A stretch of DNA of 64,000 nucleotides from Klebsiella pneumoniae. GTDB lineage: Bacteria; Pseudomonadota; Gammaproteobacteria; Eutrophobiales; Eutrophobiaceae. The stretch covers positions 22,535-86,534 of the forward strand of contig CAMBTO010000002.1 in the NCBI GenBank assembly GCA_945870865.1, written 5' to 3'. Position 1 is the stretch's first letter; every line of letters starts with the position of its first letter. The translations under genes were made by a program, and so were the position numbers. Shown piece after piece: positions 6,380-61,039 of the stretch. The notes under the pieces were generated by a model. That model made no database searches, was not told the origin of the DNA, and was given only the letters and a program-made list of their open reading frames with translations.

Positions 6380-7372
6380 TTACTGGTCCAGCGTACTGTG
6401 GGCCATCACTTCATCCAGTTTCATCAGCCGTGGCGTGAGTCCCTGCTCGAAAGAATATTGCGCGGCGGTTTCCAGCACCTTCCGGTTTGCCTTAATACCG
6501 TGACGCACGACAGCTTCCTGCAAGGCCTTTGCCGCGTCCGTTGAAATCAGACCGGTGGTGACGTGGTAGTCCACATGTTCCATACGTTGCCTGTTGGTTA
6601 ACTCGTTGGCCTGTTCAAACGCCTTTAACAGGTTAAGCACGACCCAGGGGTGTTTTTCGACAATCTCACGACGCACAACCATGCCGTGATTGATTGGGTA
6701 AATGCCGGTCTTGCGGTAGTAACGTATGCCCTCGGCCTGAGGATCAGGAAACAGTGATCGAATGTCGGGGTGATTGTGCAGGTCGGCGGTACTGCGGTCG
6801 ACCAGGTTATTGTGACGCAGATAATGGATGACCGCATCCAGTTCGCCTGCAAGCATCATTGAGCCGATATTTTTCTCCGGCGGGATCGGGTTGATGGTCA
6901 CACCCGGTGGCGCCTTGAAGCCCACGCTGGCGGCATGGCTGTGTGTTGGTACGCGTTCCATCCAGTGCTGCATGTCCTGTTGGGGTACACCAAATTCATG
7001 CTGGAGTATGCCGCGCGTCCATAACGCAGCGGTTTGCTGGTATTCCGGCACACCCACACGACGACCCTTCAGATCGGCGGGTGTCTTTATCCCTGACTCC
7101 TTGCGCACCAGGATTTCGGTATGGAAGAATTTGCGGGTGGTAAAGATCGGCAGCCCGACCCAGCGGTCATCGCCTCCGGCCACAGCCATCATCAGTGACG
7201 AAAATGACATCTCGGACAAATCAAAATCGGCAAACTTCAGTTGCCGCCAGAACATCTCGGATGGATGTAATACGGTCGGTATCAGATCGATTCCGTCTGG
7301 CTGTACGCGTCCATCCAGAATGGGCCAGGTGCGCGGGTTAGAGGCAAGGGCAATACTGAGTTGCAGTTTCAT
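6380..7372 (-). CDS. 4,5-dihydroxyphthalate decarboxylase-family protein (NMT1/THI5-like periplasmic-binding fold)
   Basis: 330 aa. The N-terminus MKLQLSIAL...LDGRVQPDGIDL...FWRQL.FDLSEMS...LKGRRVGV...RGILQHEFGV matches the conserved signature of the Pht5-type decarboxylase family as I recall it. Confidence 0.55.
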   Translation of the reverse strand: MKLQLSIALASNPRTWPILDGRVQPDGIDLIPTVLHPSEMFWRQLKFADFDLSEMSFSSLMMAVAGGDDRWVGLPIFTTRKFFHTEILVRKESGIKTPADLKGRRVGVPEYQQTAALWTRGILQHEFGVPQQDMQHWMERVPTHSHAASVGFKAPPGVTINPIPPEKNIGSMMLAGELDAVIHYLRHNNLVDRSTADLHNHPDIRSLFPDPQAEGIRYYRKTGIYPINHGMVVRREIVEKHPWVVLNLLKAFEQANELTNRQRMEHVDYHVTTGLISTDAAKALQEAVVRHGIKANRKVLETAAQYSFEQGLTPRLMKLDEVMAHSTLDQ

Positions 7373-7579
7373 CGATTCCTTTGTCGGCCTGCGTACAGGC
7401 AGTAATTTTATGTGTTATCAGAGTCAGATTAACAAAACAGACCGCTGTTACACAAATGTTACACAAACAAATCAGTACAGATCTACGGAGATTGTATTGC
7501 TCTTACCTATAATTGCTGTAAAACCGGTCGTTCACAAGGTATCCTGTGGCTTCAAGAAAAATTCAATATCAGGTAAAAA

Positions 7580-9712
7580 ATGCGCTACAGTGAATTTATT
7601 GTTTGTCTGTTTACGGCCTCAATCGTTGCCGTCGGCCCCGCTTATGGACAGGGGAGTGACAGTAAGGCCACGTCTGACGTGGCCCTGTCCACTGCAGGTG
7701 CCGGTTCGGAACTGGTCAGTTATCCAGCTGATTTTTTTCATAAATTCAAGCCACTGACAGCACTTGATATGGTGCGACAGGTCCCCGGCTTTCAACTTGA
7801 AGAGAGTGTGGACGGTCCTCGCGGTTTTGCCGCCGGCGCGGGTAATCTTCTGATCAATGATCAACGTCCCAGCGCGAAGCAGGACCTGCCCTCGGCGATA
7901 CTGTCACGTATTCCCGCAGGCAATGTCGAGCGTATCGAGCTGATACTGGGTCAGGTGCGTGGTATCGATCTGCGTGGCCAGTCCTCGCTGATAAATATCA
8001 TCCTGCATGAAGACAGTCCGGGCGCGGTCAAGTGGGAGGGGGCGGTGCTGGTCCCGTTCAAACACGGTCCTTTGACACCGATAGTCAATGTTTCACTTTC
8101 AGATAAATGGAATGAAATAGAGTACAGCACGGGCCTGTCGATGACAGGCAACTCCTATGGTCGTCACGGGCTGGATCAGCTTTTTAATGGCAACGGTATC
8201 CTCACCGAAAACCGGTTTGATAACCGGGAAAACCGGATTAAAACCTGGAAAGGCAATTTCAATGCCGTCTCCCTGCTGACGGGAGGTACGCTGGTCAAGC
8301 TGAATACGGTTTTCACCCATGAGTCTCGTGACCAGTTTCTGGTTTCGGACCGAGTCCCTGAGGCGGCAGGCAGTCCTCCTCGGGTCGAGACATTCGATGA
8401 TAATCTGAAAGCACCGGGTCTTGAGATCGGACTCGACGCAGAACGTAATCTCTATAACGACCTGACCGGCAAGGCCATCCTGCTGTTCTACCGCAAGGAC
8501 GAGCAGACTTACCGTACCCAGCGTGTGCTGTATACCCTGGGGAACCAGACATCCTTCCGTGTGGCCGAAGGTGATGGTATCGCGACCGAACTTATCACCC
8601 GTGTTGAATTTGACTGGCGTGGTCTGCCCGAGCAGACGCTGCAGCTGAATCTGGAGCGGGCCTATAACAGTCTGGACCGCACACTGCAATCCACGCTCGA
8701 TAGCGGCAGTGGACCGGTTGCGTTTGACGTGCCGGGCGCTGATTCGCTGGTAAAGGAAGAGCGTTACGACCTGTTGTTACAGGACACCTGGTCACGCGGC
8801 AGGCTGCAGGTGGATCTGGGTCTGGGCGCCGAGGCCTCGACCATTACCCAGAGCGGCGACGCTGAGCAACAACGTGATTTCTTTTTTGTGAAACCCCAGG
8901 GTGTACTGACCTATACCCGGGAACAGGGCGGTCAGACCCGCCTGCGGATTGCGCGAGAGGTTGCACAACTTGATCTGACTGACTTTGTCAGTGCCACCCT
9001 GTTTGAAGATGATGACCTTGCGCTCGGCAATCCCGATATCCAGCCGGATACCACCTGGATCAGTGAGATCAGCCATGAACGCCGTTTTGGTGATGTAACC
9101 GTGGTCAAGCTGACCACCTATCATCACTGGATAGCGAATGTGCTCGACCTGCTGCCGTTGACGCCGACGTTTGAGGTGCCGGGAAATATCGGTGACGGTA
9201 GACGTTGGGGTGTCGAACTGGAGGCTACGCTGCCACTCGAATGGCTCGGCCTGACCGGGGCAAAGGTTGATGTGAAAACGCGCTGGCAGGATTCGACCGT
9301 GGTTGATCCGGTGACCGGTCAGGACCGCATACTGTCGAGTATCGAAGGCGATTTTCCGATTTTATACAATGTACCAAACCGCCACGGCTACAGCGTGGAC
9401 TATCGTCAGGACTTCGAGGCCTCACGTGTGGCCTGGGGCTGGACGTTGATATCACGCGGTGAACGCCCGTTGTTCAAGGTGAATGAACTGGAGGTTTACG
9501 ACGAGACGCCGGACCTTAACATGTTTATCGAAACGACGCGTTGGCTCGGTATCAAGGTGCGCCTGTCAACCCAGAACGTGCTGGATACACCGGGGTCACG
9601 AAATCGTACCGTGTTTACCGGTCAGCGCGACCTCAGTCCGATCAGGTTCCGTGAGGTACGTGAGCGGTATCGCGACAAGTCGGTCACTCTGACGTTCAGC
9701 GGGGTATACTGA
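7580..9712 (+). CDS. TonB-dependent outer-membrane receptor (paralog B)
   Basis: 710 aa with a signal peptide (…AVGPAYGQ) and a plug motif (ALDMVRQVPGF…GAGNLLINDQRP…NVERIELI), ending with an aromatic C-terminus (…FSGVY). It is a paralog of 3546-5711. Confidence 0.7.
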   Translation: MRYSEFIVCLFTASIVAVGPAYGQGSDSKATSDVALSTAGAGSELVSYPADFFHKFKPLTALDMVRQVPGFQLEESVDGPRGFAAGAGNLLINDQRPSAKQDLPSAILSRIPAGNVERIELILGQVRGIDLRGQSSLINIILHEDSPGAVKWEGAVLVPFKHGPLTPIVNVSLSDKWNEIEYSTGLSMTGNSYGRHGLDQLFNGNGILTENRFDNRENRIKTWKGNFNAVSLLTGGTLVKLNTVFTHESRDQFLVSDRVPEAAGSPPRVETFDDNLKAPGLEIGLDAERNLYNDLTGKAILLFYRKDEQTYRTQRVLYTLGNQTSFRVAEGDGIATELITRVEFDWRGLPEQTLQLNLERAYNSLDRTLQSTLDSGSGPVAFDVPGADSLVKEERYDLLLQDTWSRGRLQVDLGLGAEASTITQSGDAEQQRDFFFVKPQGVLTYTREQGGQTRLRIAREVAQLDLTDFVSATLFEDDDLALGNPDIQPDTTWISEISHERRFGDVTVVKLTTYHHWIANVLDLLPLTPTFEVPGNIGDGRRWGVELEATLPLEWLGLTGAKVDVKTRWQDSTVVDPVTGQDRILSSIEGDFPILYNVPNRHGYSVDYRQDFEASRVAWGWTLISRGERPLFKVNELEVYDETPDLNMFIETTRWLGIKVRLSTQNVLDTPGSRNRTVFTGQRDLSPIRFREVRERYRDKSVTLTFSGVY

Positions 9713-9743
9713 AAAAAAACCCCGTCACCAGGACGGGGTTTTA
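9713..9743. terminator. bidirectional rho-independent terminator between the TonB-dependent receptor B gene and the PEP-CTERM gene
   Basis: The sequence is an A-run, then CCCCGTC-accagg-GACGGGG, then TTTT. The GC-rich 7-bp stem is flanked by A and T tracts. Confidence 0.6.
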
Positions 9744-9769
9744 AAGACTACGGGGACTACGGTTGGTGA

Positions 9770-10363
9770 CTAGTTGTTCGAGCGGCGTTTGCGCATGCCG
9801 GCCAGACCCAGCAGGCTGAGTGACAACAGCGCAAGGCTACCCGGCTCAGGAACAGCCGTCGGATTATCATTGCTGAAGTTGGCGATAAATCTGTGATCTA
9901 GACCGATGAAGTCAGTCATATCATTTATCGAGCCAAAGACCGAGTTACCACCAGAGTAAACATCGTTAAAGATAAAGTGGGCAGTTGATCTAGTAAAACC
10001 GTTATAGTCGATTAAGGCCCAGACGGTGCTGCCACCAGTCAGTTCCATATCGATGTCAATCACGTTAATAGCAGCGACATTGACGACAACCGAAGTCGAG
10101 AACAAGGTGTTGCCGAAGTTCAACGCATCCGTCAGGATGAAGTTGAAAGTCAGACCGTTTGATTCTTCGTCAAAGTAAAAACCAATATCATCGAGCGTGG
10201 TATCCGTATTATCGACCGTTAATGACGGGCCACTGCCTGCCCATGCGCTACTAACGTTACCATCCCATAATGCGCTGGTATCAATAACAGCAGCCTGTGA
10301 GGCGACGGGCAACAACCCGATGAACGCTACACTCATCAACAATGATAATATTCTGGAACGCAT
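9770..10363 (-). CDS. PEP-CTERM sorting-domain secreted protein
   Basis: The C-terminus is VPEPGSLALLSLSLLGLAGMRKRRSNN, i.e. the PEP motif, a TM helix and an Arg-rich tail. The start was moved to the internal ATG (10363), which has an AGGAG RBS 11 nt upstream and a signal peptide (MRSRILSLLMSVAFIGLLPVASQA). Confidence 0.75.
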   Translation of the reverse strand: MRSRILSLLMSVAFIGLLPVASQAAVIDTSALWDGNVSSAWAGSGPSLTVDNTDTTLDDIGFYFDEESNGLTFNFILTDALNFGNTLFSTSVVVNVAAINVIDIDMELTGGSTVWALIDYNGFTRSTAHFIFNDVYSGGNSVFGSINDMTDFIGLDHRFIANFSNDNPTAVPEPGSLALLSLSLLGLAGMRKRRSNN

Positions 10364-10756
10364 TACGGCTGACTCCTCATGAATTTGACTAATCTTCAGA
10401 TTCGGTACTGGTTCACAGTTTAAGAGCAATTTTCGTACCACAAATATTAATAAATAAAATCAACAACTTCTGTTTAGGCGCGGGTGCGGAAGTGTAAAAA
10501 ACTTCGTCAGTTAGCGCCCGGTATATACATGTTTTGAGCTATCTTGTGTCGTTCATTGTTAGTCAAGCATATGAATTTATTATAAAAAATCTGGATAACA
10601 TGGCTTGTTTTACTTTGTAAACTATTCCGACATAACAAAATACCCGGACCAAGGCTGACTCCCGCTACACAGTCCTGGCAGTATCACTACGTTTTCGGGA
10701 GATCAGGCGACACAATCACGCCAGATTTACAGTAATGACTTTGAAGAGGCGCATCC

Positions 10757-21576: not shown

Positions 21577-21999
21577 ACGCAAGTTACCGACGCCGAATCC
21601 AGCACAGTCTCGAATGGCTGTATTATTTTGCGCGGGCAGCCCGTCTTTGAGAGCATGGGTGCGACCCTGCAGACCTATATCTTCAATAATTTTTTCCCCG
21701 CGTTCGGGCAAAATATCCTTGAATACATCAACACCTTTACCCAGAAGGCCTCGGAGTTGACAGTCACGGGACTGTTGATGTTGTTCGTAGTCGCGCTGAT
21801 GATGATAGCGACGATAGACGATGCGCTGAATTCCATCTGGCATGTACGTAATCGCCGTACCTTCATTGCCCGGTTTCTGGTGTATTGGGCGATACTGACG
21901 ATGGGACCGTTACTGGTCGGGGTGAGCCTGATTTCCACGTGCCGCAGGCAGCGTTGTATGGCCTCGGCAGCGAACTGTCTCGTTATCAGCAGCCGCTAA
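21577..21999 (+). pseudogene. remnant of yihY/BrkB-family membrane protein gene, truncated at both ends
   Basis: …FNNFFPAFGQNILEYINTF…LMMIATIDDALNSIWHVRNRRTFIARFLVYWAILTMGPLLVGVSL matches the central conserved region of YihY. There is no start codon in frame after the stop at 21574. Similarity ends at ~21935 and no continuation is found in other frames. Confidence 0.55.
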
Positions 22000-22102
22000 C
22001 AGACAATCTGACCGTGTCGGTTAGTACCATATTGAAACAGAAGCAGGACAATCCGGTATTATAGTGATACGTATCATTTGACCGGACGCCAGGAAACACA
22101 GA

Positions 22103-22624
22103 ATGACAAACAACGATATCATCCGCCGCATACGCTACATCTTCGATTTTAACGACTACAGAATGATCGCCATCTTTGCACTGGCCGAGGTCGAGGTCTC
22201 CCGCGAACAGATCAGTAACTGGTTGAAAAAAGATGAGGATTCGGCGTACCAGGCCTGCAACGATATAATGATGGCCACCTTCCTGAACGGCCTGATCCTC
22301 GAAACCCGCGGGAAAAAGGAAGGTCCACAACCTGAACCTGAAAAGCGCCTGACCAACAATATCGTCTTTATGAAACTGAAGATAGCGCTGAACATGCAGG
22401 CCGATGCGGTGCTGGAGATACTGGAGTCGGTTGGCCTGAAGATCAGCAAACATGAATTAAGTGCGTTATTCCGCAAGCCCGGGCATAAACATTATCGTGA
22501 CTGCAAGGACCAGATATTACGCAACTTTCTCAAAGGACTACAGCTGAAATATCGCGGCAATCGCAGTGCCTATGAGGAAATCGGGACAGACGAGGATGTA
22601 ATAACGGGTGATAACATTACATAA
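22103..22624 (+). CDS. DUF1456 (YehS-like) family protein
   Basis: 173 aa with two internal repeats (NNDIIRRIRYIFDFNDYRMIAIFALA… / …KLKIALNMQADAVLEILESVGLKISKHELSALF) characteristic of DUF1456. Confidence 0.55.
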   Translation: MTNNDIIRRIRYIFDFNDYRMIAIFALAEVEVSREQISNWLKKDEDSAYQACNDIMMATFLNGLILETRGKKEGPQPEPEKRLTNNIVFMKLKIALNMQADAVLEILESVGLKISKHELSALFRKPGHKHYRDCKDQILRNFLKGLQLKYRGNRSAYEEIGTDEDVITGDNIT

Positions 22625-23248
22625 CACGGTCCCATTTATTAGTTCTGACAGAGTGCTCGAAAATCGCATCCCGAAGAAAGTTCCGTCCTCATCCCGGATT
22701 ATTTGATACTGGACAGTAAAAACTGTTTCAATATCTTCGATATAGGTATAACGAATTATTGATGGTATTATCTCTCTGTTGAAGGGCTCTTGAGCCCATC
22801 TACAGGGCCCCTAGTAGCACCCCCCCGCTGCCGGGGCCCTTCTATTGATACCTCTCATGATCCAGCTGTCTCCATCGAGTCCGCAATTACATATCGTCTA
22901 TCTAAAGCTTTTAAAGTCAATTATTTAATAGAAGTTACAGGGGCAAGTTACTGAACCGCCCGAATACGTTATCAGAATCAAGTTAACTGTGACTGAAACT
23001 CTCAAGGGCCTTTTGCAGGGTTAAAAGCTCGTCAGTCATATCCTTGCTGAAATAAAACGACGGTTAAGTTGATACGCACGTTGTTTGCATGCATCGAACG
23101 CCGTGTTATACCGCATTTCAATTTCCCTTTGTGTAATTGATCTTTTAGTGAAATCACTGCTAGCGCTTGGTATTTCTCGTAAGGACTTAGCTAAAGCTAT
23201 ATCGACAATCTCTCAAGCGGCATAACGATTAAGACGAGCAGGGATCGC

Positions 23249-23320
23249 GGGGACAGTTTACTTATCTGCCTGTTGTAATCTCAATTAAGTAAACTGTCCC
23301 GAAAACTCAGTTTTTTCGCG
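23249..23320 (+). terminator. 15-bp perfect inverted repeat followed by T6 (terminator-like; possible 3' end of an unannotated sRNA)
   Basis: GGGACAGTTTACTTA-(21 nt)-TAAGTAAACTGTCCC then gaaaactcagTTTTTTcg. It lies in an 800-bp ORF-free AT-rich region. Confidence 0.4.
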
Positions 23321-23442
23321 GTTAGTTTCGACATTACGCCAGAGAATATATCAAAAATATACAACTGGCCTATATCGCAGTAAAAGGACTTTCGGTAATT
23401 TCGGGTGTACTATTTGCAAACCTGACTGATAGGGAATGCTTT

Positions 23443-23895
23443 ATGATACTGGACGTACTGGAAAACGCTGATCGCTATCTCACCCTGAACAAGGGTTTCA
23501 AAACCGCGTTTTCCTTTCTGATGCGATCGGATCTGCAAAAACTTGCGCCGGGCCGGCATGAAGTCGCCAATGATCGTGTATTCGCGCTGGTCGAGGATGC
23601 ACCGGGTCGCCAACCGGAGCAGGCCGAGCTGGAGTCGCATGAAAAATATATCGATATCCAGCTGGTGGTGACCGGTATGGATACGATGGGCTGGAAACGC
23701 ACGGCGACCTGTACGCAGGTCTCGAAGGCATATCATCCTGGCAAGGACATCGGCTTTTTCAAGAACAAGCCCGATGTGTGGTTACCGGTCAGTGCTGGTA
23801 TGTATGCGATCTTTTTTCCGGAAGATGCCCACATGCCGATGATCTCCACGGAGCGTATACGCAAGGTTGTGATGAAGATAGCACTCGATCAATAA
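23443..23895 (+). CDS. YhcH/YjgK/YiaL-family (DUF386) protein
   Basis: 150 aa. MILDVL…YIDIQLVVTGMDTMGW…GMYAIFFPEDAHMP…RKVVMKIA matches the DUF386 beta-sandwich family as I recall it. Confidence 0.7.
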   Translation: MILDVLENADRYLTLNKGFKTAFSFLMRSDLQKLAPGRHEVANDRVFALVEDAPGRQPEQAELESHEKYIDIQLVVTGMDTMGWKRTATCTQVSKAYHPGKDIGFFKNKPDVWLPVSAGMYAIFFPEDAHMPMISTERIRKVVMKIALDQ

Positions 23896-23936
23896 ACCCG
23901 GGCAAAATCGGCACGCAGATTAAGGGGAGAGAACAG

Positions 23937-24100
23937 ATGAGTGAACTGGTCAACATCTTGCTGGCGATATTTTGCCGCCAGTGGGTGTGTTTCTGCAGGT
24001 CGGTATCGGCAAGCATTTCTGGATCAATATCATCCTGACACTGTGCTGTTATATCCCGGGAATCGTGCACGCGGTCTGGGTCATTTCGAAGAAAAAATAG
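23937..24100 (+). pseudogene. pmp3/yqaE-family proteolipid gene disrupted by a -1 frameshift in a T-run (or homopolymer sequencing error)
   Basis: A strong RBS (AAGGGGAG) precedes ATG 23937. MSELVNILLAIF is in frame 0. The rest of the family-conserved sequence PPVGVFLQVGIGKHFWINIILTLCCYIPGIVHAVWVISKKK* is in the -1 frame, and the shift is at TTTT (~23970). Confidence 0.6.
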
Positions 24101-26570: not shown

Positions 26571-26622
26571 TGGTGTCTTCGTGGATACAGCTTGAACTTA
26601 TATATATGCCCCGATAACGTGG

Positions 26623-26856
26623 ATGAGTATGTCAACCAGCACACCGGAATTTCACAGATTAATCGCCAGTCTTGATGGTGATGAGGAATTACTCGCGACT
26701 ATCGCCGCGCCAGTCGCCGGTTTCTACAGCGCGTTTGCCGAACAGATGCGGCTATTGCTGGATGACACGAATTACGCGGGGCTGAAGAATGTCGCACATA
26801 AACTGGAGGCCACCTGGAGTATGTACGCAGAAAATTATCATGACGCGCCTGAATAG
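26623..26856 (+). CDS. small hypothetical protein, possibly Hpt-like
   Basis: 77-aa helical-looking protein. NVAHKLEATWSMYAE faintly resembles an HxxKG Hpt motif. The call is weak. Confidence 0.25.
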   Translation: MSMSTSTPEFHRLIASLDGDEELLATIAAPVAGFYSAFAEQMRLLLDDTNYAGLKNVAHKLEATWSMYAENYHDAPE

Positions 26857-27171
26857 CTTGAGGCCGTGACCCGCAGTGTGGTCAATTCCCCGGCACTGAC
26901 TGGCATACCATACAGCGGTAATGCCATGATCAGCACCAGCAGGATCTGCCGCAGTTTCAGTTTATCACTCTGACCTGTTTTCATGGTTGCGATGATCAAC
27001 GATACGAGTCGACGACACAGTCCGTGTTTGGTATCAAACTGTCACCGCGCGTAACCCGATAAAGTCTCATGGCAGTATCGTGATGCGCAGACTTTCTGAA
27101 TAAGGATGCAAGGTGAGTATGTAGCGGGAGTGTATGGCAACAGTAACAGTCTGTAACCGGTGTATCGAAGA

Positions 27172-27215
27172 TCACTGCTGTAATAGCAGATCACTGCTGT
27201 AATAGCAGATCAGTC
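27172..27215. repeat. tandem direct repeat of the 19-bp unit GATCACTGCTGTAATAGCA (2.3 copies), each unit containing a CTGCT-gtaat-AGCAG mini-hairpin
   Basis: Read directly from the sequence. It abuts the stop codon of the response-regulator gene. Confidence 0.8.
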
Positions 27216-52829: not shown

Positions 52830-53493
52830 ACTGTTGCCCGTGTCTTACTCGCTAGTCCCGGATGGCCGGATTCAGCGGCCATTATAACGACTACAGTGAT
52901 ACTTTACCCAATTAACCGAATCCGCTATCTGAATCAGGAAATCAAACAATACATAACGATTTAGCCGGTCCGCACACGTGAACGCCAATAGCCTGGTTCC
53001 TTGTGTCAATGCATGACTGCCACAATAAGAATATTCTCAGGCTCAAATGTTACAGCACGCGGGATAGGCCGCCAGATCGGGCGCAGATATCTACAAAATA
53101 TTTGGACAACCACGCAGAAATATTACAAATCACATGGAGGTATTTATGAAGGATTTCGTGCCCAAATCGTGCGGGCTGATGGATCAGGTCCGTGAGGTTC
53201 TGCGTTATTATCATTACGCCTACTCCACTGAAAAATCGTATGTTTCTGGATATCCGTAACTGGCTTTTAACGCCATCTTATTCCTGTGGCGGGATGTTTT
53301 AAAGTGCTATCAGGTCATGTTTTGATGGTTTTAAAAACGCTTGTTTGAACTGGATTCCGGGCTCGGCTAGCGCCGACCCGGAATGACGGGATACTGAGCG
53401 AGGTAGGGCTTGTACGATTCTTTGGCCTGGTCAGTACCTTCGGGTTTTGTGCTGGCACAAGCTGACAAAGTAAATCAAGACATTAGTAATGCT

Positions 53494-60984: not shown

Positions 60985-61039
60985 CTAAATAACGGTTCCG
61001 AAATCCTCGACGGTTCTGGATTTCGGAACCGTTATTTAG
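60985..61039. terminator. 22-bp perfect inverted repeat (11-nt loop) between convergent lptG and RDD-protein genes; hairpin terminator-like, no U-tract
   Basis: CTAAATAACGGTTCCGAAATCC-tcgacggttct-GGATTTCGGAACCGTTATTTAG. The right arm overlaps the RDD gene stop codon. Confidence 0.5.

Follow-up and report, generated by a model that had tools for sequence, protein, structure and literature searches.

A conserved non-coding element, a gene-loss scar and a REPIN-type palindrome as the probable make-up of an ORF-poor intergenic gap

The gap between the DUF1456 and YhcH/DUF386 genes

The window analysed here, a stretch of 64,000 nucleotides (64 kb) from contig CAMBTO010000002.1 (assembly GCA_945870865.1), contains a gap poor in open reading frames (ORFs; 22625–23442) between the stop codon of a DUF1456 gene (22103–22624, + strand, stop at 22624) and the start codon of a YhcH/DUF386 gene (yhcH; 23443–23895, + strand, start at 23443). 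Three perfect hairpins, called i, ii and iii below, lie within it. Does such a gap hold a small RNA (sRNA) gene, or is it what a decayed element has left behind? Our comparisons indicate that it is probably a mosaic of three unrelated things: a conserved non-coding element, block A (22675–22872, + strand), an AT-rich filler (22873–23397) and, embedded in the latter, a REPIN-type palindrome (hairpin iii, 23249–23301). Most of the gap is ordinary, being a gene-loss scar and a mobile palindrome, and block A is the remaining candidate for a structured RNA.

The comparisons rest on relatives gathered by a protein-anchored scan and by later look-ups. The closest, L091, is about 97% identical to the window at the nucleotide level and has the entire 818 bp gap. 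L092 (about 89% identity) is on a contig that ends shortly past block A, L001 (CAMDWI010000001.1) is about 88% identical, the sequence of L093 stops at 22708, and one further relative (P0005) is known by its gene order alone. A DUF1456 protein of more than 74% identity was present in one species only in the genome collection. By blastn, similarity to L001 runs from the DUF1456 gene through 22873 and resumes only at about 23387–23397, approximately 50 nt before the yhcH start, where the 5′ leader and ribosome-binding region of this gene (23398–23442, + strand) are 64% identical. L092 tracks the window to about 22908 and diverges beyond this point. When the gap was compared with 80 distant DUF1456 loci using nhmmer and blastn, L001 was the sole match.

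The gap is 818 bp long, with a GC content of 0.42 compared with 0.55 for the window, and the longest ORF lying fully within it encodes 54 amino acids (22790–22954, with a TTG start). A first-pass annotation of this DNA had described a gap of lowered GC content without any ORF of more than 60 codons, and both points are borne out. The three hairpins that it listed are likewise all present, although their coordinates are slightly shifted and the arms of hairpin ii are separated by 21 nt rather than 20. The gap is not an assembly artefact, because near-identical contigs were recovered from separate samples or assemblies: five contigs (one of them an NCBI metagenome-assembled genome) span all of it with 99.9–100% identity, and five others match portions of it. 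An Rfam search of 22000–24000 at E ≤ 10 gave sub-threshold noise only, with no family at its gathering threshold, in line with the earlier failure to recognize a tmRNA, RNase P or 6S RNA. At gathering thresholds one tRNA, and nothing else, passes in the whole window, and ARAGORN found neither a tRNA nor a tmRNA within the gap.

How exceptional are the hairpins themselves? Inverted repeats with short spacers are frequent in this DNA, with 158 of 6 bp in the window versus about 119 in shuffled sequences and 49 of 8 bp versus about 24. Nothing about hairpins i and ii as such is therefore unusual, and only their conservation makes them matter; a 15 bp perfect inverted repeat such as that of hairpin iii never arose in the shuffles. 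By self-comparison, none of the hairpins and no portion of the gap has a second copy in the window. Among plasmids and phages, blastn with the gap returned a single 29 nt chance match, and neither hairpin iii nor a block A motif was found in scans of viral contigs. In a consensus scan, promoter-like matches were no commoner than in shuffled sequence (four found versus 3.4 expected).

Two further stretches of 560–640 bp without any ORF of at least 100 amino acids occur elsewhere in the window (26571–27209 and 52845–53406). It should also be noted that an 11 nt perfect direct repeat, TGATACTGGAC, is found at 22704–22714, in block A, and at 23444–23454, overlapping the yhcH start codon. We rejected it as a target-site duplication, given this overlap and the approximately 0.1 such repeats estimated to occur by chance in 1 kb.

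Block A downstream of the DUF1456 gene

Block A was aligned from four lineages: the window, L091, L092 and L001. The 50 nt directly past the DUF1456 stop (22625–22674) form a fast-evolving spacer with indels, in which 21/53 alignment columns (40%) are invariant, compared with 172/201 columns (86%) in the 198 nt of block A. The corresponding values within DUF1456 are 36/53 (68%) for four-fold degenerate sites and 72% for all third codon positions, and the excess of block A over the four-fold rate is highly significant (binomial p = 8e-9). Between the window and L001 the pairwise distance is only 9% in block A, versus 24% at third positions and 40% in the spacer; the pairwise divergence of the spacer is 30–40%, compared with 13–24% at third codon positions. 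The block is AT-rich in its left half, where 88% of the columns are invariant, and carries two GC-rich hairpins in its right half, where 83% are. Its alignment contains three 1 nt indels and the block is therefore non-coding. Across 1.48 Mb of examined loci its motifs occur at the orthologous site only, and the foreign genes of L001 and P0005 begin about 270–280 nt past the DUF1456 stop, i.e. just beyond it. As read from this alignment, block A is a non-coding element under selection and the only portion of the gap on which purifying selection acts.

The left half contains two palindromes that are near-invariant in the four taxa, ACAGTAAAAACTGT (22713–22726) and TTCGATATAGGTATAACGAA (22736–22755; 16 of its 20 positions are symmetric), as well as weak promoter-like matches on the + strand (22710–22737) and on the − strand (22782–22755). 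Both palindromes are possible protein-binding or promoter-region sites; LexA-box and σ54 readings of this half were rejected on inspection. In the right half, hairpin i (22784–22797, + strand; GGGCTC-TT-GAGCCC) consists of a 5 bp GC stem closed by a tetraloop, with an imperfect 14 nt extension (22776–22805). The stem is invariant and the tetraloop reads CUUG in the window, CUCG in L092 and UUCG in L001. Hairpin ii and its tail (22804–22852, + strand) look like a terminator. The arms AGGGCCCC (22804–22811) and GGGGCCCT (22833–22840) are separated by 21 nt; the GC stem comprises 8 + 5 bp in the window and 9 + 5 bp in the relatives, and the loop is a run of seven C in the former and eight in the latter. 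A consensus terminator scan flags the inner stem (22823–22836) with the tail CCCTTCTATT. When the full 8 + 5 bp stem is considered, it is followed by TCTATTGATA in the window and by TCTATTTATA in the relatives. The tail itself is TCTATTGATACC in the window and TCTATTTATA(T)CC in the relatives, where the sequence after the hairpin reads UCUAUUUAUA. Compared with shuffled sequences, block A folds better on the + strand (z = −3.8) than on the − strand (z = −1.8), and a G-U pair in hairpin ii of L092 also fits the + strand.

Block A would thus most simply be a terminator or 3′ module that serves DUF1456 transcripts and has additional signals in its left half. The conservation of the block is observed directly, while its transcription, strand and function are what we infer. 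Transcripts of DUF1456 on the + strand would end at hairpin ii, and the left half may bind a regulator or carry promoter signals; it may even give rise to an RNA of about 90 nt stopping at the same terminator.

Several observations weigh against this picture. In the comparison of the window with L091, block A has changed at the rate of silent sites (11/201 versus 8/174). The changes specific to the window (22812 G>T, the loss of one C from the C-run and 22847 T>G) all weaken hairpin ii, whose U-tail is weak in the window. Constraint on block A may be relaxed in the window lineage, but the numbers are too small to establish this and the contrast to the L092–L001 pair is not significant. The covariation analysis proposed in the first-pass annotation gave no compensatory pair in block A on either strand (RNAalifold, with only four close sequences to draw on), and a C-A mismatch in hairpin ii of L091 would be a G-U pair on the − strand.

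Could all of the gap, including block A, be neutral decaying DNA with no functional part? Decay is indeed visible in the surroundings, in the YihY and Pmp3 genes and in the L089 deletion described below, and both the silent-site rate of change between the window and L091 and the weakening of hairpin ii are what such DNA would display. This is improbable, however, in view of the four-lineage conservation, which lies well above that of the four-fold sites and of the adjoining spacer (the p value given above), and of the insertions or divergence points of three relatives, which all fall past the 3′ edge of block A. A more serious competitor, possible even if we hold it to be doubtful, is an independent sRNA gene: an RNA of about 90 nt would be transcribed from a promoter in the left half, and its C-run loop, in the terminator hairpin, would pair with G-rich (Shine–Dalgarno-like) mRNA sites. 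It would account for a left half conserved like the hairpins, which a bare terminator leaves unexplained, and it sits well with the very fast evolution of the spacer that precedes block A, with the weak promoter-like matches and with a C-run loop retained in four of four taxa. Yet these matches are at the level of shuffled sequence, there is no covariation and the strand is unsettled. Moreover, a covariance model of hairpins i and ii found no similar element in 79 distant DUF1456 loci (nothing below E = 6). The best Rfam match over the two hairpins, 6C RNA (RF01066; E = 1.6 in the 2 kb search), is a weak resemblance that scores 24.7 bits, far under the gathering score of 47.

Known elements give some measure of the terminator/3′-module reading of block A. 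Gammaproteobacteria have sRNAs derived from 3′ untranslated regions (3′-UTRs), such as CpxQ, SroC and DapZ. As in intrinsic terminators and in these sRNAs, block A is a conserved stretch downstream of a coding gene that ends in a GC-rich stem and a U-rich tail, and it is better conserved than the sequence right after the stop codon. Unlike them, it is confined to a few uncultured relatives and known from sequence alone, and its window version has no Hfq-type U-tail. It shares with 6C RNA two adjacent stem-loops, one of which has a loop with 7–8 C; the first loop of block A does not contain a C-run, however, and 6C is an actinobacterial family. Entry points for accessory genes are known in tRNA and tmRNA genes. 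A bolder proposal, which we regard as rather unlikely, is that block A is a new clade-specific sRNA gene or 3′-UTR-derived sRNA, with a hairpin that displays 7–8 C for G-rich mRNA and a 3′ edge that is a preferred entry point for accessory genes.

The filler and its surroundings

Past block A the gap changes in character. The filler (22873–23397) is AT-rich (40% GC) and lineage-specific, being common only to the window and L091 (at about 97%), and genes stand in its place in other relatives. At the same site, which measures 524 bp in the window, L001 has 3.6 kb (6775–10378, as delimited by blastn) with five genes: a ParE toxin (PF05016), an RHH-type antitoxin, a 252-amino-acid ORF, a 98-amino-acid MoaD-like protein and a 395-amino-acid BNR/Sortilin-type repeat protein. 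The ParE/RHH pair and the 252-amino-acid ORF have a GC content of 47%, versus 54% for the locus. In P0005 the cargo past DUF1456 comprises NMT1_3, a 225-amino-acid protein and an HTH_3 protein, followed by the same 98- and 395-amino-acid pair. Since the cargo differs between lineages past 22873–22908, the site is an accessory-gene hotspot. The lineage of the window and L091 has presumably lost its cargo and the MoaD-like/BNR pair; against this stands the fact that the direction, loss rather than gain, rests on parsimony over few lineages without an outgroup.

We searched the filler for coding relics without finding any. A six-frame Pfam scan of 22840–23445 gave no family even at E ≤ 10. Neither tblastn of the five L001 island proteins nor sensitive blastn of the island DNA detected a remnant in the filler. 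Its two longest frames free of stops likewise lack a homologue: a 50-amino-acid segment of a + strand frame had no phmmer match among 1.84 billion representative proteins, and a word search with a 58-amino-acid segment of a − strand frame gave no candidate. Part of the filler is also missing from a variant in the population: L089 matches the window by blastn over 22547–23118 and then over 23282–23946, so that approximately 165 bp (about 23119–23283) are lost at a junction with 2–4 nt of microhomology, and only the right arm of hairpin iii is left.

Two genes close to the gap are damaged as well. A YihY/BrkB pseudogene (PF03631; 21628–21999) lacks 682 nt between 21916 and 21941 in comparison with the intact 422-amino-acid gene of L001. 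Gene callers predict a 114-amino-acid fragment in every contig of the window's population; the gene is intact in L001 and P0005, and in L091 another 221 nt are gone (window positions 21577–21797). On the other side, the gene for a Pmp3/YqaE-type small membrane protein (23938–24100) carries a 1 nt deletion in a T-run (TTTT versus TTTTT in L091) that shifts the frame past codon 12 and leaves a 42-codon ORF with a TTG start, whereas the protein is intact, with 54 amino acids, in L091 and L001.

The decayed element that the first-pass annotation had offered as an alternative therefore holds for the filler, i.e. for about two thirds of the gap, because gene-bearing DNA has been replaced, no coding relic is left, a deletion is polymorphic, and YihY and Pmp3 are damaged. 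We take the filler to have no function. It would be the residue at a site of recurrent gain and loss of accessory genes, and small deletions may still be whittling it down, as in the neighbouring YihY pseudogene. With deletion scars and accessory-gene hotspots between conserved core genes, the locus shares its conserved flanks, a cargo that differs between relatives and includes a toxin–antitoxin pair, an AT-rich residue, neighbouring pseudogenes and a deletion that is polymorphic in the population. In contrast to site-specific islands, no integrase, tRNA or direct-repeat boundary was found at the filler site. The locus is thus a small case of ongoing gene loss in an environmental population, involving YihY, Pmp3, the MoaD-like/BNR pair and a segregating deletion.

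Hairpin iii and its palindrome family

Hairpin iii (23249–23301) is a doublet of the form GGGGACAGTTTACTTA-(21 nt)-TAAGTAAACTGTCCCg, with perfect 15 bp arms at 23250–23264 and 23286–23300, a 21 nt loop, a stem of 40% GC and a degenerate outer stem. Is this palindrome peculiar to the gap? We scanned metagenomes for the pattern ACAGTTTACTTA-N5-35-TAAGTAAACTGT, which has 24 specified bases in two 12 nt arms and for which well under one chance match was estimated. The scan uncovered a family of at least 125 copies on at least 120 contigs of 42–68% GC. All family statistics that follow refer to the 125 copies listed. The extended half-site consensus is (g)AATTaC-GGGG-ACAGTTTACTTA-ATT, and both arms of hairpin iii match a hidden Markov model (HMM) of the half-site (E = 5e-6 and 1e-5). 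The arm variants pair with themselves (67 GGGG/GGGG, 21 GGTG/GGTG and 15 AGGG/AGGG, with about 15 mixed), complementarity holds for most of the outer 10 nt, and the spacers of 6–35 nt are often palindromic themselves. As many as 118 of the 125 copies are intergenic, mostly 5–40 nt past a stop codon; 35 lie between convergent, 44 between tandem and eight between divergent genes. The 150 neighbouring proteins fall into 165 Pfam families without any enrichment. Other hosts carry 2–4 copies within 2.6–7 kb. Nested or tandem copies occur in L105, L109, L127, L184 and L189, for instance as a doublet inside the spacer of another, which suggests insertion into existing copies or cluster formation.

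The family is moreover linked to a transposase, since its arms bracket RAYT-type Y1 transposase genes in six of six loci examined. In L112 four palindrome copies occur within 5 kb, and two of them bracket a gene for a 222-amino-acid Y1_Tnp protein (PF01797), for which over 7,900 homologues were found at E ≤ 1e-20. Four homologues on long contigs were picked and gave five loci (L214, L215, L216/L217 and L218), two of which are the same place; each gene is bracketed by the inverted motif, about 43 nt before the start on the left and 6–10 nt past the stop on the right. In L215 both arms carry an ACAC/GTGT variant, so that the two sides differ together. The protein scores 31 bits against PF01797 (cut-off 23) and matches the full length of the NCBIfam model NF047646, ‘REP-associated tyrosine transposase’, with 71–76 bits. 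Its best match among solved structures is Escherichia coli TnpA-REP (PDB entry 4ER8; E = 0.0013), in an alignment that includes HVHLI and YVSLNPV, and one member of the cluster bears the name RayT of Candidatus Kentron in its source. RAYT protein searches of plasmids returned only matches of 31–35% identity. The best listed Y1 homologues are 69–99% identical. Most homologues lie on very short contigs, which is what one would expect if assemblies break at flanking repeats. L218 contains two full copies of the Y1 gene and a fragment within 12 kb, with tandem repeats of the right end.

REPINs, which are miniature mobile elements without autonomy, depend for their copying on a REP-associated tyrosine (Y1/HUH) transposase, or RAYT (PMC3116915, PMC5581495). 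They are described as having inverted conserved ends, a spacer, a hairpin with compensatory changes and an extragenic dispersal, with a RAYT gene flanked by the same sequence; examples are GI–GIII of Pseudomonas fluorescens SBW25 and the REP/BIME sequences of E. coli with TnpA-REP (PDB entry 4ER8) (PMC3116915, PMC5581495). The family shares with them two inverted conserved ends of about 16–26 nt around a variable spacer that form a long hairpin, compensatory changes between arms, extragenic copies beside unrelated neighbours, often past stop codons and at times nested or in tandem, and a Y1/HUH transposase gene flanked by the same ends. Judged by these features, hairpin iii is a REPIN-type repeat, with two inverted REP-like ends (GGGGACAGTTTACTTA) around a short spacer, because it belongs to a widespread intergenic palindrome found beside unrelated genes, the arms of which bracket RAYT-type Y1 genes. 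A Y1 transposase acting on the single-stranded hairpin would have copied it into the gap, as established for related systems, and it may now be at most a passive hairpin, for example a partial barrier to transcription ahead of yhcH. The first-pass annotation had itself named REP-type repeats as a case that would undo its proposal, and for hairpin iii this is what we find.

Some features nevertheless weigh against this assignment. In contrast to REPIN populations, the half-site HMM finds a single copy in the 64-kb window, and no transposase homologue was detected by tblastn in the window, L001, L091, L081 or L086. Unlike in classical REPs, the half-site of the GGGGACAGTTTACTTA family is not clearly palindromic: in the consensus AATTaCGGGGACAGTTTACTTAATT only the outer AATTA/TAATT is self-complementary. 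The NF047646 scores fall short of the cut-off of 80, and the several transposase gene copies in some hosts (L218) are more reminiscent of insertion sequences than of a single-copy RAYT. The family indeed resembles IS200/IS605 and their derivatives (PATEs, MITE-like elements) in the Y1 (PF01797) fold of its transposase, in a substrate that is probably a single-stranded hairpin and in short non-autonomous copies that greatly outnumber the gene. However, the ends of IS200/IS605 are two different subterminal hairpins rather than one inverted pair, and the family protein scores better against RAYT models than against ISDra2 TnpA. We also considered and rejected two other identities for hairpin iii, namely an integron attC site, as its outer ends GGGGACAG … CTGTCCCC do not contain GTTRRRY and the family's neighbours are housekeeping genes, not cassettes, and a Tn3 end, on inspection.

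What, then, of the sRNA that was proposed to run through the filler on the + strand and to end at about 23320, with hairpin iii and the TTTTTT run (23311–23316, + strand) as an intrinsic terminator? The region 23200–23330 does fold better than shuffled sequences on the + strand (z = −3.4), and no substitution separates the window from L091 within 23216–23314. We nevertheless consider an independent sRNA at this place very improbable. Hairpin iii is a dispersed REPIN-type repeat; its 21 nt loop, its stem of 40% GC and a T-run 10 nt past the stem do not suit an intrinsic terminator, and the consensus scan does not call one. The T-run, which forms an arm of the small palindrome GAAAACT-C-AGTTTTT, is interrupted in L091 (TTTTCT). 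The promoter check advised upstream of 23249 revealed no + strand promoter-like site between 22737 and 23442, L001 and L092 lack the sequence, L089 has lost the left arm of hairpin iii, and no Rfam family matches. The terminator geometry and the sRNA of the first-pass annotation are accordingly not upheld at about 23320; an RNA or terminator reading survives some 450 nt upstream, because hairpins i and ii sit within the selected portion of the gap. Even harder to credit is the idea that hairpin iii terminates a gene for a hydrophobic peptide (a type I toxin or a small membrane protein) encoded by a 40-codon ORF at 23103–23225 (+ strand). This ORF ends 25 nt before hairpin iii and is hydrophobic over its N-terminal two thirds. 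Its start is kept (GTG in the window, ATG in L091), and besides this start-to-start change it differs from L091 by two synonymous and one non-synonymous substitution. However, four substitutions carry no statistical weight, no Shine–Dalgarno sequence was seen upstream by inspection, the peptide has neither a Pfam match nor a phmmer match among the 1.84 billion representative proteins, most of the ORF is gone in the L089 variant, and copies of the REPIN family usually follow stop codons anyway. The ORF is thus not supported as a gene.

Two other segments of the window may be mentioned. The stretch 22968–23001 (+ strand) could be the decayed right arm, with flank, of a single REP, as 25 of 34 ungapped positions match 23275–23308; our confidence in this is low, with a chance expectation estimated at about 0.02 and no detection by the half-site HMM. 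A second long perfect palindrome (60985–61039) has 22 nt arms, CTAAATAACGGTTCCGAAATCC and GGATTTCGGAACCGTTATTTAG, around an 11 nt spacer. It begins 5 nt past the end of a + strand gene and reaches the 3′ end of a − strand gene, the stop of which its last 4 nt overlap; tRNA-Glu(CTC) lies some 430 nt away. The palindrome may serve as a terminator in both directions or be a further element of the REP type.

An RNA gene is not, then, the only thing that perfect hairpins in a conspicuous gap without ORFs can point to, and here a few relatives and one pattern scan sufficed to separate one selected part from two non-selected parts. The selected part, block A, is a precisely delimited candidate of about 200 nt for a structured RNA or a terminator. 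As regards hairpin iii, searches of the literature with the REP core sequence returned unrelated primer matches only. With no paper found that contains this core, the family seems to be undescribed, though its elements are of a kind already known. The REPIN populations on record are lineage-specific, whereas the core of this family is the same across contigs of 42–68% GC. Because of this constancy and of the more than 7,900 transposase homologues, the GGGGACAGTTTACTTA REPIN/RAYT system may be an undescribed and unusually widespread REPIN lineage. When uncultured Gammaproteobacteria are screened for sRNAs or terminators, hairpins of this kind can be masked with the half-site consensus of the family, which also lends itself to asking how a REP sequence is kept uniform in hosts that differ widely in base composition.

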